Shown: positions 13,746 to 21,350 of the stretch, piece after piece
Numbering within the stretch: position 1 is the first letter of the stretch
Layout: every line of letters starts with the position of its first letter
NCBI RefSeq assembly: GCF_988242995.1
Contig: NZ_OZ547043.1
DNA: 64,000 nt
Reading direction: 5' to 3' (one strand)
Notes under the pieces: model-generated
What the model was told of the DNA's origin: nothing
The model's database searches: none
What the model saw: the letters and a program-made list of their open reading frames with translations, nothing else
Position numbers and translations under genes: made by a program

Positions 13746-14764
13746 TCACCACCTCCACGTCCGATACGCGGATCAATCCACAAATAGAGCAAATCCACCA
13801 CCAGGTTCACCAGCACATAAGCAAACGAAACCACGACGGCAAATCCCATCACCGCAGGGAAGTCGAGCGCCTGTATTGATGTCACTACCCATGCCCCCAT
13901 TCCGGGCCAGGCAAAAACGGTTTCGGTGAGCACTGCGCCATACAACAAATCGCCCAGCGCCAGCCCCAATACGGTAATCGAGGGGATCAACGCATTCGGT
14001 AGCGCATAACATAAAACGATATACCAGCCGGGCAAGCCGCTGGCCCGGGCGGTACGAATGTAATCTTCACTCAATTGTTCCAGCATCGCTGAACGGATCT
14101 GGCGAGCGACAATTCCCAGGTGAACGAACGCCAGCGTTAATGCCGGTAAGATGAGATGTTGCAGCGCATTGAAGAAGACTTCACCGTTGCCTTCAAGCAG
14201 CGCATCGAGCAGATAAAAGCCGGTAACGTGCGTTGGTGGATCCAGCCAGTCATCAAGCCTTCCGCCGCCGGGAAGAATTTGCAGATGACCATAAAACAGC
14301 ACAATGACACCCAGCCCAAGCCAGAACGCAGGTGTGGAGATTCCGGTAATGGCCATTATTCGCACCAGATGATCCAGCCAGCGATTTCGCCAGACTGCAG
14401 AGAGTATGCCCAGCGGGATGCCAATCAGGAGTGCCAGCAGCAGGGCACAAAAAGCCAGTTCCAGCGTCGCCGGGAAAAATATGCGCAACTCTTCCAGCAC
14501 CGGACGCCCGGTACGAATGGATGTTCCCAGGTCACCCTGAAACAGGTCGCTGACGTAGCGGTAAAACTGTACATACAGTGGCTGGTCCAGTCCCAGTTGC
14601 TGGCGAATATTATCCACGATAGCATCGCTGGCGCGGTCACCCGCCAGTAACCGCGCCGGATCGCCGGGGATCAGGTGCGAGATAATAAACGTAATCACAC
14701 AGACGCCCGCCACCACGAGCACCAGCCCCCAGCAGCGTTGGCGTAAAATACTCCAGAAGGTCAC
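13742..14764 (-). CDS. ddpB: D,D-dipeptide ABC transporter permease
   Basis: 340 aa, multi-TM, Opp/Dpp-type permease. Confidence 0.9.
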   Translation of the reverse strand: MTFWSILRQRCWGLVLVVAGVCVITFIISHLIPGDPARLLAGDRASDAIVDNIRQQLGLDQPLYVQFYRYVSDLFQGDLGTSIRTGRPVLEELRIFFPATLELAFCALLLALLIGIPLGILSAVWRNRWLDHLVRIMAITGISTPAFWLGLGVIVLFYGHLQILPGGGRLDDWLDPPTHVTGFYLLDALLEGNGEVFFNALQHLILPALTLAFVHLGIVARQIRSAMLEQLSEDYIRTARASGLPGWYIVLCYALPNALIPSITVLGLALGDLLYGAVLTETVFAWPGMGAWVVTSIQALDFPAVMGFAVVVSFAYVLVNLVVDLLYLWIDPRIGRGGGE

Positions 14765-14765
14765 G

Positions 14766-16316
14766 TTATTTACTCATGGTATTGATATTGAAGACCTGTT
14801 CCAGCATGGGATTGAACACAAAGCCTTTCACCTCTTTGTTCATCGCCAGTTGGTAGTTTTTCTGGAACAGGTACACATAAGCAGCGTCATCAATGACGAT
14901 TTTCTGTGCCTGCTGGTAGTCCCGGGTACGCTGCGTCTGGTCGGTGGTCGCTAGCGCATTGCGCAGTAACTTATCGACCTCACTGTTTTCATAGAACGAG
15001 CGGTTACCCGGCAGACCTTTTTTGTCTGACTCAAACCAGTAATTCATAAACATATACGGGTCGGCAAAATCCGGACTCCAGTTGCCAATCGCAATGTCGT
15101 AATCACCTTTACCCACTCTGTCGCGCATGGTGGCGTTCGCCAGTTTTTCCAGCTTCACATTGATGCCCAGCTTGTTGAGACTGGATTGTGTCGCCAGAGC
15201 GATCGGTTCCCAGTTCGGGTCGTTATCGGAGTAGAGAAACGTCAGGCTGGTGGGTTTGCTCGTCACTTTATCCCATTCGGCTTTGGCTTTCGTTTCGTCA
15301 TGGTTGTATTGCATTGCCGTCGCATCGTATCCCCACATGCCTTCCGGAATCGGGCCGCGCATTTGTTTTCCGTTACCACTCAGAATGCCGTTAACCATAC
15401 CCTGATAATCGGTAGACCAGGAAATGGCCCGACGCAGATCCGCCTGATTAAGCGGCGCTTTGCTGTTATTCAGATACAGATAGGTGACGCGTAGTGACGG
15501 ATACTCTGCCACGTTGACTTTGTTTTCCTGCTTCAGTGCGTTGAGTTGATCCACCGGCAGCGCATCGGCAATGTCAATGTCGCCACGGGAGAGTTGCAGG
15601 CGACGGGAGGCACTTTCACCGATAATTTTTACCGATACCCGTTTAAAGTTCGGTTTATTGCCAGGGTAATGCGGATTTGGCACCAGAACTAATTGCTGAC
15701 CTTTTTGCCAGCTTTTCAGCATAAACGGTCCGGAGCCAGCGGTATTTTGCGCGAGGAAACCACGGGCATCATCGGCCGCATGTTCCTTTAAGACCGCCGG
15801 ATTGATAATGGATGCACCGTCATTCGCCAGCGTATAGAGGAACGGTGCGAATGGCTGGCTAAGGGTAAACCTCACTGTATGTTCGTCGGGAGCATCAATC
15901 TTTAAATCTTTGGGAAATGCTTCTGCTGGCCCCTGGCCGATTTTTAGTAACCGCTCAAAAGAGAGTTTTACTGCTTCGGCAGTGACAGGTGTGCCATCGG
16001 CAAATTTAGCATTGTCCTTCAGGGTGAACGTCCACTCTTTTTGATCGTCAGACGCTTTCCAGCTACTCGCCAGATCGCCTTCAACGTCGGTTGAGCCTTT
16101 ATCACCGTCCGTTTTGTACTGAACCAGTCGCTGATAAGACGGGTAGGTCACTGTCCAGTCGTTATTATCAATTGTCACCGCTGGGTCGAGGGTTTGTGGG
16201 TCGGCAGCTTTACCGATCACCAGCATATCTTTCGGTACGGCGGCGTGCGCAACCGGCATTGTTGTGGCAAGGACGATCGCGAGCAATGTAGGACGAAACG
16301 AAATCGATCTCTTCAT
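14766..16316 (-). CDS. ddpA: D,D-dipeptide periplasmic substrate-binding protein
   Basis: Track ORF 14766-16451; start placed at MKRSISFRPTLLAIVLATTMPVAHA (signal peptide) giving 516 aa; family 5 solute-binding protein. Confidence 0.88.
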   Translation of the reverse strand: MKRSISFRPTLLAIVLATTMPVAHAAVPKDMLVIGKAADPQTLDPAVTIDNNDWTVTYPSYQRLVQYKTDGDKGSTDVEGDLASSWKASDDQKEWTFTLKDNAKFADGTPVTAEAVKLSFERLLKIGQGPAEAFPKDLKIDAPDEHTVRFTLSQPFAPFLYTLANDGASIINPAVLKEHAADDARGFLAQNTAGSGPFMLKSWQKGQQLVLVPNPHYPGNKPNFKRVSVKIIGESASRRLQLSRGDIDIADALPVDQLNALKQENKVNVAEYPSLRVTYLYLNNSKAPLNQADLRRAISWSTDYQGMVNGILSGNGKQMRGPIPEGMWGYDATAMQYNHDETKAKAEWDKVTSKPTSLTFLYSDNDPNWEPIALATQSSLNKLGINVKLEKLANATMRDRVGKGDYDIAIGNWSPDFADPYMFMNYWFESDKKGLPGNRSFYENSEVDKLLRNALATTDQTQRTRDYQQAQKIVIDDAAYVYLFQKNYQLAMNKEVKGFVFNPMLEQVFNINTMSK

Positions 16317-16329
16317 GACAGTTTCCTGA

Positions 16330-16911
16330 TTAACTGGCGTGCTGTGTGCCAGGGGATATAAAACAGGTGAATTGATCAGCGAGTAGTGGGTAACTCGCTG
16401 CCTGGGGTAATTCGAAGTGCCACCATTCGCTCGGGATACCGACAAAGCCACCGCCAGTCATAATCGCATTCAGCAACAGCCGATTGCGCTGAGCGGCGGG
16501 CGGGACGGAAGGGTGATAAGCATGGGAACGTTCGTGCATTTCATCGAACTCTGCACCCATATCCAGTATGTTCCCGTGCTCATCACGAAGCGTCAGGTCG
16601 ATCGCCGTGCCACGGCTGTGATTAGAACCGACCGTCACATCAACAACATATTGCGGGTCTGGGCAGGCTTGCCACAACATCGCCTGTGCTTGTTGTGGGC
16701 GATACGCATCGTAAATCACCAGTTGTAAGCCTGACAGCTGGGCGATACTGATACTTTTCGCCAGCGCGGTAATCGCATCCTTGTGTAACAGACAACGCGC
16801 TTGCTGATAAATAGCTTTACCTGTGATGTTATCAGCGCAGGCGTATTTCAATTCGATCTCCAGATCAGGGAAGATCACGGCTAAATCAACCAGTTCGGTG
16901 GTATCCGACAT
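16330..16911 (-). CDS. ddpX: D-alanyl-D-alanine dipeptidase (VanX homologue)
   Basis: 193 aa with zinc-peptidase-like SNHSRGTAIDL and EWWHFE segments; first gene of the ddp operon. Confidence 0.9.
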   Translation of the reverse strand: MSDTTELVDLAVIFPDLEIELKYACADNITGKAIYQQARCLLHKDAITALAKSISIAQLSGLQLVIYDAYRPQQAQAMLWQACPDPQYVVDVTVGSNHSRGTAIDLTLRDEHGNILDMGAEFDEMHERSHAYHPSVPPAAQRNRLLLNAIMTGGGFVGIPSEWWHFELPQAASYPLLADQFTCFISPGTQHAS

Positions 16912-16955
16912 AAACGGTTCCTGTATAAGACAAAAATTGCTGCGCTTTCCGCTTA

Positions 16956-16971
16956 TGCAGATCTCATGCCA
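16956..16971 (-). promoter_or_regulatory. Putative sigma54 (-24/-12) promoter for ddpX
   Basis: Minus-strand sequence TGGCATGAGATCTGCA has GG and GC at the canonical spacing (consensus TGGCAC-N5-TTGCA), about 45 nt upstream of the ddpX ATG. Confidence 0.5.
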
Positions 16972-17168
16972 TGCCGGGATAAGCGCCAGAATGCTGGCTT
17001 AAAGTTATATTTTTTAACTTTTGATCAACATTTGTGCAGCGTAGTGCAGTTTTGGTGCAAGAGGGGAAGTTAAGGAAGGAATCTCCCGGAATCGTAGCTG
17101 AAATCACAGTATTTAAGTGACAGTGTCACGTTAAAGGAAAACCCGCGAGTGCGGGCGAGAGGAATTTG

Positions 17169-19568
17169 TCAGATTTTCAGCGGTAACACGCTGCTCATCC
17201 AGCCTGGAATTTCTTCGGCGGGTAGGGGGCGGGAAAAGAAATATCCCTGAATAACGCGACAGTGGATCTTGCGTAGCATCTCAAATTGCTCTTTGGTTTC
17301 GACGCCTTCCGCCACGACGGTTAAATTAAGGCTTTGCCCAATGCTGGTAATGGCTTCAAGTAAGGCAAGGATGCGTTTTTCGGTCAGACAACGATCGACA
17401 AAACTTTTGTCAATTTTGATTTCCGTCACCGGAAGACTGACTAAGCGGGATAATCCGGAAAAGCCCGTGCCAAAATCATCTACCGATAAACCCACGCCCA
17501 TATCGCGCAGGATCTGAATGCGCTTAAAGATTTCGGTATCGTGTTCCATCATCATGCTTTCCGTGATTTCCACCGTCAGCTGGTGGCCGTCAATACCCCA
17601 GGCGTGCATTGCATCAGACACCTGATTAGGCAGTTGATTACTGCGAAAGTGCAGCGCCGACAAGTTAACGGATAACGCCGGGATATGAATATTCTGGCTA
17701 CGCCATTCTGCTAACTGACGACAAGCTTCCGCGATGACCCAGCGTCCAATATTTTCGATTTCACCGATCTCTTCTGCGAGAGGAATAAACCGTGAAGGGG
17801 GCACATGACCATGCAGGGGATCGTGCCAGCGAGCAAGGGCTTCGATGCCGTAGAGTTCACCCGTTTCTGCGAAGATTTGCGGCTGGTAAACCAGTTTTAG
17901 TTGGTTATTGCTAATCGCTTCTTTCAGCGCCGCGCCTAAAACCAAACGCTCTTTTACCATTTCGTTCATCGCCGGGCTGAAGAACTGCCAGCCGTTACCG
18001 CCATTCTTGCGAATATAATCCATTGCATTGTGAGCAGTGGAGAGCAGGTAATCGCGGTTTTTACCCACGTCGTAGCTGATGCCAATGCTCAAGGTGAGCG
18101 GGAATGGTTTATCGTCAATCATTATCGGCTTGCTGACCACATTCCGTAGCTCATCGGCGATTTGGGTTATGTTACTGACGTCGTTTTCCAGGCTCACGAG
18201 GACAAACTGCGTACCTTCGATACGACAGAGATACTGATCCGGTTTGAGTTTTTCACGAAAGCGATTGACCACTTCCAGCAATGCCTGATCGGCCCACGCA
18301 TAGCCAAGGCTATCAATCACATCCTGAATATGGTCAACACCGATGAGATACACCACCGGAGAGACGGCTTTGTCGACCAGGTCATCGAGGTAATTGTGCA
18401 GGTTATTGCGATTTGGCAGACCGGTCATCGGATCAAATTGGATGAGTTGTTCAATATGCTGACGGCTTTTTTCCTGTTCCAGCGCCAGCGCGGCCATATG
18501 CTGGCTGATATCTGCCACGCGTTCGATAAAGGCGCTGGTTTCTGCTCCTGACGAGGTTTTAATTTGCAGGATCCCCGCCGGCGCGCCATCACGCTGACGA
18601 ATGGTCGCTGACCAGCTTTGCGCATTTTGAACTTCTGTACCGTGCGAAGATGACGCCCAGTGTATCGGCATCCCGTTGCGCAGCGCGAACAGCGAAACAT
18701 GCGATTCGTTGAGTACAGATTCGATGTTACGACAAATGATTTCCCCCATTTCATGAAATGGCGGGCTGCTGCACATGGCGGCGAGAATATTGCCTTCAAG
18801 CTGGCGGATTTGCCGTTCTTCGGTGATATCCGAGAAAGTCATTACCAGGTTCTGCAGATGCGCGAGCACGTCATAAACCGGGCTGATAGAGGCTTTAATC
18901 CAGATTTTTTCACCGGTGCGCGTCAACAGCAGAAATTCATCCTGATCGCGGGCGGTTTTCCATAGCAACTGTTGTAAACGAATGCGGTTATCGGCAGGGA
19001 ATTCAGGAATGTTCAGGAGTGAATCGGGCTGCATACCGCTGGCTTCGCTAATGCAGTAACCAAACATTTCGGTAAATGCGCGATTGCACTGCACAATATG
19101 GCGTTCCGGATCGAGGACAATCACCGGTCGGTCGAGATGGTCAACGGCAATAATCAATTGTCGGGTCTGTTCTTTTTGCGCCATTTCTACGCTGGCATCC
19201 CGTACCAGCGCCAGGTAATAAACTTTCCCCTCGGCGCTCACTTTCGATAGCGCAAAACGGGTCCAGATTTTACTGCCGTCTTTTTTCTCCAGCTGCAGCT
19301 CCCGACTCATCCCCTCGACGCGCGCTTTACCGCCTTCACGGTTGTGACGGATGTATTCAGGATGCGCAGGACGCAAATCCCGCGGAATCAGCATATCAAT
19401 GTTATTGCCAATGACTTCTTCACGTTTGTACCCCCAGAGCTTCTCTGCGGCTGGGTTGAAAAACATCACTTCATCATTTTCGTTAATTAACACCGCGCCC
19501 ATCATATTTTGCTCAAGGGCGGGGAAAAAAATGCCATCGGCGGCATTATCCGCATCGGTTAGCTTCAT
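17169..19568 (-). CDS. dosP: Heme-regulated c-di-GMP phosphodiesterase (PAS-PAS-GGDEF-EAL), direct oxygen sensor
   Basis: Track ORF 17169-19592 with start at MKLTDADNAADGIFFPALEQNMMGAVLIN (799 aa); EAL-domain motifs in the C-terminal part. Confidence 0.9.
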   Translation of the reverse strand: MKLTDADNAADGIFFPALEQNMMGAVLINENDEVMFFNPAAEKLWGYKREEVIGNNIDMLIPRDLRPAHPEYIRHNREGGKARVEGMSRELQLEKKDGSKIWTRFALSKVSAEGKVYYLALVRDASVEMAQKEQTRQLIIAVDHLDRPVIVLDPERHIVQCNRAFTEMFGYCISEASGMQPDSLLNIPEFPADNRIRLQQLLWKTARDQDEFLLLTRTGEKIWIKASISPVYDVLAHLQNLVMTFSDITEERQIRQLEGNILAAMCSSPPFHEMGEIICRNIESVLNESHVSLFALRNGMPIHWASSSHGTEVQNAQSWSATIRQRDGAPAGILQIKTSSGAETSAFIERVADISQHMAALALEQEKSRQHIEQLIQFDPMTGLPNRNNLHNYLDDLVDKAVSPVVYLIGVDHIQDVIDSLGYAWADQALLEVVNRFREKLKPDQYLCRIEGTQFVLVSLENDVSNITQIADELRNVVSKPIMIDDKPFPLTLSIGISYDVGKNRDYLLSTAHNAMDYIRKNGGNGWQFFSPAMNEMVKERLVLGAALKEAISNNQLKLVYQPQIFAETGELYGIEALARWHDPLHGHVPPSRFIPLAEEIGEIENIGRWVIAEACRQLAEWRSQNIHIPALSVNLSALHFRSNQLPNQVSDAMHAWGIDGHQLTVEITESMMMEHDTEIFKRIQILRDMGVGLSVDDFGTGFSGLSRLVSLPVTEIKIDKSFVDRCLTEKRILALLEAITSIGQSLNLTVVAEGVETKEQFEMLRKIHCRVIQGYFFSRPLPAEEIPGWMSSVLPLKI

Positions 19569-19592
19569 GATTACCTCTGCATCCTGGCGCAT

Positions 19593-20975
19593 CTAAAGAC
19601 TGGCTTTCCAGAGTTCAACACGGTTTCTACCTCGTCTTTTGGCGATATACAGAGCTTCATCGGCTATTTGAATGAGGCGCTCATAGTCAGGATGACCATT
19701 AAACATGGCGGCACCGATGGAAAGTGAGAGGGCAATATCTTCGCCGTTTGCGGCTTTCAGTTTGGTTTTCTCCACCCGACTGCGAATACGTTCTGCGGTA
19801 CGTAACGTTTCGTTTTCAGAAGCTTCAGTCAAAACAATGATAAATTCATCGCCCCCGTAGCGGAAAACATAATCACTACTGCGGACGTTGTCATAAAAGG
19901 CCTGAGAGACTTTACGCAGAATTTCATCGCCAGTGTTATGGCCCCACGTATCGTTGATCTCTTTGAATTTATCAACGTCAATAATCAGCACTGACAGCGG
20001 TGTACCGGTCCGGTTGGCATGGGCAATTTCGCGTTTGAAGATCGTCGGCAGGAAACGGCGGTTAAGTAATTTCGTCAGTACATCCATACCGACTTCGTGG
20101 CGCGATACTTCTTCAAACAATTCACGCAGCAAGGTAATAATTTGCGATACGGTATTTCTTATCTGTAATAAAAATTTCACCCGTAAACTTCTGTTATTCA
20201 AATTCCTGGTGTTACGCATGGTTTGATTGAAAATACCGTCAAAATCCTGAATCAGACGGGAGATATGGCCCACTTCGGCTATGCCGCTAAAATAATGTCG
20301 ACCTTTATGGTTAAACCACAGGCCAAAATCAGCCTGGCTTAAAGGCAAACTACTGCCTAAATCAGAATCCAGCAGGACTTTATAGATAATATCTATTTCC
20401 CATGAAAGTAATGAGGCTATTTGCCGCTCTTTTTCTTCTTCGGCATTTTCCAGTAACGAGAAGATACGATAGTTTTCATCTTCTTTTGAGGCACTACTGT
20501 CACTAAAGGTAAACGCGCGGGTCATCACTTCCATAGCGATATCAATACTGTTAATAGAGAAATGGTAGACCTGAAGTTTTTCTGCGGCGGAATAATCCGA
20601 AGAGAAGATGACCGGATAGAGGATTTTTTTCAGCACCCGAAACCCCATCTCGACAATTTCTACCGGAATTCCTATGCGGGCATGCACTTCCGCAACGGTA
20701 TGCTGGATTTGTATTAGCCTTTCGACATCGTCAACCTGGGCAGAAAGCACGTTAATAATCCAGCGTTCCATCGCACTTTTCAACTGCCGCTCAACTTGTT
20801 CATTACTCAAGAATTCTTCGGCATGCGGGTCGATACGGACAATTCGGTAAAACTCAATACTCAGATAATGGGCATGCGCAACGGCAATTTCCGCGGCTTT
20901 AGCACGAATGAGCGGATCTGCTTGTTCGACAAGCCCGGTCCACTCATCTTTCATTCTTTTAAAATACATCTCCAT
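19593..20975 (-). CDS. dosC: Globin-coupled diguanylate cyclase
   Basis: 460 aa; N-terminal globin sensor region and C-terminal GGDEF (RYGGDEFIIVL). Confidence 0.9.
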   Translation of the reverse strand: MEMYFKRMKDEWTGLVEQADPLIRAKAAEIAVAHAHYLSIEFYRIVRIDPHAEEFLSNEQVERQLKSAMERWIINVLSAQVDDVERLIQIQHTVAEVHARIGIPVEIVEMGFRVLKKILYPVIFSSDYSAAEKLQVYHFSINSIDIAMEVMTRAFTFSDSSASKEDENYRIFSLLENAEEEKERQIASLLSWEIDIIYKVLLDSDLGSSLPLSQADFGLWFNHKGRHYFSGIAEVGHISRLIQDFDGIFNQTMRNTRNLNNRSLRVKFLLQIRNTVSQIITLLRELFEEVSRHEVGMDVLTKLLNRRFLPTIFKREIAHANRTGTPLSVLIIDVDKFKEINDTWGHNTGDEILRKVSQAFYDNVRSSDYVFRYGGDEFIIVLTEASENETLRTAERIRSRVEKTKLKAANGEDIALSLSIGAAMFNGHPDYERLIQIADEALYIAKRRGRNRVELWKASL

Positions 20976-21350
20976 AATTCACACCCTTATAAGGCTGGGA
21001 AAGCAGACGGAATCAAAACGAAACGCAACGTGCGAGATCGACTAACTGCACCATATTCTCCTGAAATATGAAGATATACTGAAAAGAAATAAGCGACTTA
21101 GGACAGTTTCAATCTACGCTACTGTTCTTCAGAAGAGTATAGCCCATCGTAATTATTTTTCGGTGACAGCGAATATCGTATGTTTTTTCATATTCATACA
21201 TTTTTATTAGGGGATTTATGACTGTTTAACTAAGTGTGGTTAATTGCGTAGTTAATTTGACTTAAGTAAGCATGATTACTAGTGGGATATTTCAAGAGGG
21301 TAACAAGCCGGGGGGAAAGCACCGGCTTGTTACAAAGTAAGAATGGGAGT

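Follow-up and report, generated by a model that had tools for sequence, protein, structure and literature searches.

The dosP–ddpX intergenic region and the ddp operon

The window, the whole 64-kb stretch of DNA analysed here, is from E. coli. Positions 16912-17168 form a 257-nt noncoding spacer between dosP and ddpX, both of which are encoded on the minus strand (Table 1). Megablast found this region in 5,392 of the 5,426 complete E. coli genomes, where the flanking genes are annotated as dosP and ddpX. The original prediction, made from the letters alone, had named the downstream gene ddpX and placed it in the ddp operon, and the RefSeq annotation under the megablast match confirms this assignment. 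Downstream of ddpA, the second gene of the operon, lie ddpBCDF, which reach about 10.9-11.4 kb in the window, an extent taken from deletion junctions described below. The strain of the window differs from its best database matches at a few bases of the flanking 700 nt (99.7% identity), and the spacer alone is 100% identical to that of strain AR_0013. An internal constitutive RpoD promoter within ddpXABCDF, between ddpA and ddpB (in the window, around 14766), is listed by Shimada 2014.

The ddp control region is bounded upstream by a terminator-like hairpin at the end of dosP. The hairpin is modest, and its U tract is interrupted (UUUUCCUUU). Between this terminator and the conserved part of the spacer, we observed an Escherichia-specific palindrome, TTAACGTGACA-C-TGTCACTTAAA (17112-17134, minus strand), which faces a gap in the alignment of the other genera and matched no known binding site.

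Table 1 Coordinates of features at the dosP–ddpX locus of the window and of related features at other ddpX loci (L numbers)
Feature	Position	Strand	Description
dosP	17169-19592	minus	807-codon ORF
dosP terminator-like hairpin, GCCCGCACUCGCGGGU, then UUUUCCUUUA	17131..17156	minus	-10.9 kcal/mol, z = -1.95; upstream boundary of the ddp control region
Upstream activating block (putative), TGCACCAAAACTGCACTACGCTGCACAAATGTTGATCA	17059..17022	minus	38 nt, three TGCAC half-sites
NtrC-like site I	17059-17043	minus	perfect TGCACCA half-site, 9/14 to consensus, centre ~-106
NtrC-like site II	17038-17022	minus	10/14 to consensus, centre ~-85
Spacer between block and promoter	16973..17021	minus	61% A+T; conserved GTTAA at 17017-17013
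Sigma-54 (-24/-12) element, aTGGCATGAGATCTGCA = ATGGCATGAGATCTGCA	16972..16956	minus	best matrix hit; identical 17-mer published
Predicted transcription start	16945	minus	from motif geometry: C of GC taken as -12; 19 nt downstream of motif centre 16964
5' leader, short and unstructured	16912..16944	minus	34 nt predicted; Shine-Dalgarno AGGA at 16922-16919
ddpX, D-alanyl-D-alanine dipeptidase, operon gene 1	16330..16911	minus	193-codon ORF, starts MSDTTELVDL, ATG at 16911; RefSeq annotation under match
ddpA, substrate-binding protein, operon gene 2	14766..16316	minus	ORF end from ORF list; start by analogy with the RefSeq annotation of L082
SapR-like MurR/RpiR gene (examples)	L016:1561-2488; L003:1546-2486		between sigma-54 promoter and ddpX
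Palindrome abutting the -12 element (examples)	L003:1559-1579; L016:1574-1594		also in 47 other loci
Sigma-54 motif without regulator gene	L036:2445-2461; L043:2346-2362; L046:2329-2345		three lineages: an Enterobacterales MAG, Pantoea sp. BAV 3049 and [Erwinia] mediterraneensis

A sigma-54 promoter element upstream of ddpX

The feature that had drawn attention to this spacer was a sequence read as a sigma-54-type promoter, TGGCAT-N5-CTGCA on the coding strand at the right distance from ddpX. We confirmed this motif at 16971..16956 of the minus (coding) strand; the 17-mer ATGGCATGAGATCTGCA adds one flanking base, and the context on the same strand reads ...cccggcATGGCATGAGATCTGCAtaagcgg.... 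The GG (16970-16969) and GC (16958-16957) dinucleotides show the canonical 10-nt separation (GG-N10-GC). The element, TGGCATGAGATCTGCA, departs from the TGGCAC-N5-TTGCW consensus at two positions (T for C and C for T), and both departures also occur in validated sites, e.g. those of argT and norV (Bonocora 2015, PMC4591121). The motif is intergenic, lies on the same strand as ddpX and ends 44 nt before its ATG. Motif geometry places the predicted start 34 nt before ddpX, in agreement with the 'distance 34' of Bonocora 2015.

For scoring by weight matrix, which the original prediction had proposed, a log-odds matrix was built from 41 ChIP-validated 'intergenic sense' sigma-54 sites (Bonocora 2015, Table 1), with ddpX left out. 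The ddpX site reached 15.9 bits, the highest score among the 128,000 positions on both strands of the window (the next being 12.8), and ranked 15th of 42 among the ChIP-validated sites, i.e., in the middle of their range. The motif by itself is not significant at the scale of the window: a score of 15.9 bits has a per-position probability of 2e-6, which amounts to 0.26 expected occurrences per window, and 102 of 300 dinucleotide-preserving shuffles reached it. The simple pattern TGGCAYN5YTGCW behaves in the same way: it has a single match in the window against 0.43 expected, and at least one match was present in 37 of 100 shuffles. Within the 257-nt spacer on the coding strand, the expectation of a 15.9-bit score is 5e-4. 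Together, conservation across genera and published experiments, both described below, put the ddpX site well beyond chance.

The ATGGCAT...CTGCA variant recurs in other promoters of the Ntr regulon, likewise nitrogen-scavenging targets to which sigma-54 binds in ChIP-seq. The argT (ATGGCATAAGACCTGCA) and yeaG (ATGGCATGAGAGTTGCT) motifs, like that of ddpX, carry a T at position 7 instead of the consensus C, and argT also shares with ddpX the C before TGC; the genes downstream of the three motifs differ.

The runner-up in the sigma-54 matrix scan of the window, CTTGCACCAAAACTGCA (17061..17045, minus strand; 12.8 bits), lacks the GG dinucleotide and overlaps NtrC-like site I. As a second promoter this hit was rejected; we read it as a by-product of an NtrC half-site resembling a -24 element. 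The predicted leader folds at -4.4 kcal/mol, no better than shuffled sequences, and a search of 14000-21000 returned no Rfam match at E <= 1; a reading of the leader as a riboswitch or small RNA was therefore dropped.

A conserved upstream block with NtrC-like half-sites

When the E. coli spacer was aligned with its counterparts in Citrobacter, Enterobacter, Lelliottia and Huaxiibacter, the only parts strongly conserved across the five genera were the -24/-12 elements, in which CATGGCA and CTGCAT are retained in Escherichia and in all four other genera, and a 38-nt block further upstream. This block is 86-99% identical across the five genera, with an alignment footprint of 17059-17013, while the rest of the spacer and the flanks of the block fall to 20-50% identity. 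The block–promoter distance in E. coli is 11 bp shorter than in Citrobacter and Enterobacter (-66 versus -77); this difference corresponds to one helical turn, and the phasing is therefore kept. No match to the IHF consensus WATCAANNNNTTR with at most one mismatch was detected in 16940-17120.

The block contains two NtrC-like sites whose centres are 21 bp apart, or about two helical turns. They agree with the NtrC consensus at 9 and 10 of 14 positions, and matches of this quality are common by chance. A search with the consensus TGCACCANNNTGGTGCA, allowing at most three mismatches, returned no 17-mer in the spacer and three hits elsewhere, a number at chance level. The check for upstream NtrC-type sites that the original prediction had proposed thus turned up a conserved NtrC-type element, the TGCAC-repeat block, but no dyad within three mismatches. 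The assignment of the E. coli half-sites to NtrC is putative and rests on their conservation and on published binding of NtrC to a 400-bp fragment that contains them.

Orthologous positions in other bacteria point in the same direction. In more distant genera, site II aligns with near-consensus NtrC palindromes, TGCACCTTCATTGTGCA of Raoultella and TGCACCGATTTTGTGCA of Enterobacteriaceae bacterium 89, which both match the consensus at 12 of 14 positions. Serratia (TGCCCAATTGTTGTGCA, 11/14) and Pantoea (12/14) have NtrC-like sites of their own at similar distances, and in most ddpX loci an NtrC-like 17-mer (10-12/14) is located 60-145 bp upstream of the sigma-54 motif.

The reference promoter of this type is glnAp2, at which NtrC sites on one face of the helix mediate activation by phosphorylated NtrC under nitrogen limitation. 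Like ddp, glnAp2 (glnA motif TTGGCACAGATTTCGCT) combines a -24 GG and a -12 GC with an upstream NtrC enhancer. However, the glnAp2 enhancer consists of two strong, complete dyads located near -140 and -108, whereas the ddp spacer harbors only half-site-like elements (9-10/14, at ~-106 and ~-85), with no dyad within three mismatches.

A smaller conserved patch, (A)TGTGAT...ACGA...AGAT, is located upstream of the NtrC-like block (17081-17110, minus strand), and E. coli shares it with Citrobacter and Enterobacter. We found no CRP-type dyad in this patch, though ddpX is reported to be lower in a cya mutant.

Published evidence and a proposed mechanism for ddpXp

The ddpX sigma-54 site has already been published with exactly this sequence. 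Zhao, Liu and Burgess 2010 (PMC2831329, Table 2) listed ggcaTGGCATGAGATCTGCATAagcg at -60 to -43 of b1488/ddpX as a sigma-54 promoter, and observed that ddpX expression rose 2.7-fold with sigma-54 overexpression and fell 2.1-fold in an rpoN deletion. Bonocora et al. 2015 (PMC4591121, Table 1) reported ATGGCATGAGATCTGCA as sigma-54 ChIP-seq peak OS16, 10-fold above threshold, with a PSSM score of 10.5 and a predicted start 34 nt before ddpX; at that time, the promoter was marked 'P' in EcoCyc, for predicted, not 'confirmed'. Moreover, NtrC ChIP-seq in nitrogen-starved cells yielded a 24-fold peak at ddpXABCDF (Brown 2014, PMC4066584). The spacer was also recovered by gSELEX, and a ddpX fragment was shifted in gels by NtrC, by RpoN holoenzyme and by the two together (Shimada et al. 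2021, PMC8743547). We mapped the primers used for those gel shifts to about 16838-17243 of the window, a fragment of ~400 bp. With RpoN holoenzyme, the ddpX probe gave two or three bands (Shimada 2021, PMC8743547). In the same study, which included rpoN and ntrC mutants, ddpX mRNA increased 104.5-fold on nitrogen depletion, and the authors concluded that activation needs both RpoN and NtrC. Later papers credit the original assignment to NtrC and nitrogen limitation to Zimmer et al. 2000. No transcription start mapping for ddpX was found in the literature searched.

These data support the nitrogen-limitation control of D-Ala-D-Ala dipeptide uptake and hydrolysis that the original prediction had put forward as uncertain. 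The ddpXp promoter of E. coli K-12 (EcoCyc/RegulonDB; Zhao 2010, Bonocora 2015, Brown 2014, Shimada 2021) shares with the window the locus, the 17-mer, the predicted start and the assignment to NtrC and RpoN, and the promoter itself shows no difference. We thus take the flagged motif, with a probability of about 0.93, to be ddpXp, an enhancer-dependent sigma-54 (RpoN) promoter of ddpXABCDF that is activated by NtrC under nitrogen limitation.

Based on these findings, we propose the following course of activation. First, sigma-54 RNA polymerase would form a closed complex on ATGGCATGAGATCTGCA (16972..16956, minus strand). Upon nitrogen limitation, phosphorylated NtrC (GlnG) would assemble on the TGCAC-repeat block at 17059..17022, 50-87 bp upstream of the motif. 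NtrC would subsequently contact the closed complex via DNA looping, and ATP hydrolysis would open the promoter. Transcription would then start near 16945 and proceed into ddpX, so that D-Ala-D-Ala is taken up and cleaved to scavenge nitrogen. In this scheme, we infer the bases contacted by NtrC, the looping geometry and the exact start site.

Other inputs and alternative explanations

Sigma-54 and NtrC are not the sole input to ddp, since ddpXA are strongly RpoS-dependent in stationary-phase EDL933 (39- and 31-fold) and ddpX expression is lower in a cya mutant. RpoS-dependent expression of ddpX is also said to have been described by Lessard and Walsh, and dosCP is itself sigma-S dependent. Read-through from dosP is a plausible route for the RpoS effect, adding to the sigma-54 promoter without replacing it, because the end of dosP lies only 257 nt away on the strand of ddpX and the dosP terminator combines a modest hairpin with an interrupted U tract. 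A stronger version of this explanation holds that the operon is driven mainly by sigma-S or sigma-70, from a promoter of its own in the spacer or by dosCP read-through, and that the sigma-54 site belongs to the class of non-productive binding sites described by Bonocora et al. We consider this version improbable. A scan of 16700-17400, a range that includes the spacer, detected no sigma-70-type promoter, and conservation is poor from the block to the -24 element. Deletion and overexpression of rpoN shift ddpX expression in the directions expected of a sigma-54 promoter, and the 104-fold rise on nitrogen depletion was attributed by its authors to RpoN and NtrC. In addition, many genera without dosP upstream retain the motif at the start of the operon. 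The sigma-S/sigma-70 route probably adds to the sigma-54 promoter and does not replace it.

The identity of the activator is a separate question. The E. coli block lacks a full NtrC dyad, and its conservation (up to 99%) exceeds the apparent need of a weak site, which hints at extra constraints; both would suit a sigma-54 promoter that is driven by another enhancer-binding protein and to which NtrC binds incidentally. This explanation is weakened by the NtrC ChIP-seq peak in starved cells, by the gel shifts and ternary complexes formed with NtrC on the ddpX fragment, and by the reported requirement of ntrC for induction on nitrogen depletion. The perfect TGCACCA half-site in the block and the NtrC dyads (11-12/14) at orthologous positions elsewhere also argue against it, and we judge it very improbable. 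Finally, a functionless chance match, which the expectations of 0.26 and 0.43 per 64-kb window and the 102 of 300 shuffles would by themselves permit, deserves next to no weight given the right position and orientation of the motif, its retention across genera, and the published in vivo sigma-54 occupancy and expression data.

A SapR-like regulator gene follows the sigma-54 promoter in most other ddp loci

A scan of one genome per species yielded 80 ddpX loci across Enterobacterales, two from Escherichia (L001 and L002) and 78 from other genera. In 65 of these 78 loci, a sigma-54 motif of at least 12 bits (12-18.6) heads the operon and precedes a regulator gene, an ORF of about 285-290 codons that begins ~60-75 nt after the motif and, in most loci, ends 8-37 nt before ddpX. 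The ORF encodes an RpiR-type HTH_6 domain. Against NCBIfam NF046014 'SapR', it scores 376-426 bits, short of the family's cut-off of 500 bits, and we refer to it as SapR-like. In the Escherichia loci (the window, L001 and L002), the regulator gene is absent and the motif directly precedes ddpX. The same arrangement, with motifs of 13.8-15.5 bits, was found in 3 more of the 78 loci (L036, L043 and L046), which suggests that the regulator was lost more than once.

A palindrome of the form TTGTTA-N6-TA(A/T)CA lies immediately next to the -12 TGC in 49 loci from many genera, a position at which it would cover the predicted transcription start. This palindrome may be the operator of the SapR-like regulator. 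E. coli lacks both the regulator gene and the palindrome.

A comparable cluster exists outside Enterobacterales. In Burkholderia pseudomallei, sapR adjoins a ddpX/ddpABCDF-like cluster encoding a D-Ala-D-Ala dipeptidase and a dipeptide ABC transporter, and expression of the cluster falls in a sapR mutant (PMC9884982). The order of regulator, dipeptidase and transporter in this cluster matches that in the 65 non-Escherichia Enterobacterales loci. By contrast, E. coli has no regulator between promoter and ddpX, and a sigma-54 link is not reported for Burkholderia.

On the simplest reading, the order of promoter, regulator, ddpX and ddpA onwards would be ancestral, and Escherichia would have lost the regulator together with its candidate operator. 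We lean, with some reservation, towards a broader history in which the E. coli ddp promoter is the remnant of an older and widespread NtrC/sigma-54 control region that was followed by the palindrome and then by the SapR-like gene. Escherichia would have lost both (~0.9 kb), fusing the promoter to ddpX and leaving nitrogen control alone, and about a fifth of strains would later have lost the whole unit. The junctions of the presumed regulator loss could not be placed: local alignment of the 44-nt E. coli leader with the Citrobacter and Enterobacter sequences was no better than with shuffled ones, except for the ribosome-binding region beside the ATG, which scored above the shuffles.

For E. coli itself, our analysis re-derives a textbook member of the Ntr regulon and offers the specialist nothing beyond the soundness of a reading made from sequence only. 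The comparative gain is modest. It consists of a phylogenetic footprint of an otherwise unmapped upstream activating sequence, of evidence for ancestral sigma-54 control of ddp across Enterobacterales, and of the indication of a second, specific SapR-like regulator with a candidate operator, both absent from E. coli. The absence of such a regulator could account for the failure of E. coli studies to identify any specific signal for the ddp operon. In the literature searched, we found no description of ancestral sigma-54 control, of the upstream footprint or of a lost SapR-like regulator and palindrome. The conserved 38-nt block, the sigma-54 promoter before a SapR-like gene in 65 of 78 loci and the 49 palindromes are the modest addition made here.

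Loss of the control region and operon in E. coli strains

In about 22% of complete E. coli genomes, the match to the spacer extends no further than its first 76-79 nt, and dosP is followed by osmC. The missing segment corresponds to the window from 17089 to about 10936, such that these genomes lack the upstream block and the promoter along with the operon. At the ddp-less junction (L081:5001-5250), the match ends after GCTACG at 17090, and a 62-nt remnant resembles 11438-11377 of the window.

A different rearrangement was observed in strain N25 (L082). Here, a deletion with junctions at 17085 and 20728 removes dosP and joins a truncated dosC, annotated as 'globin family protein', directly to the ddp control region at 17085, in which the upstream block and the promoter are both kept.
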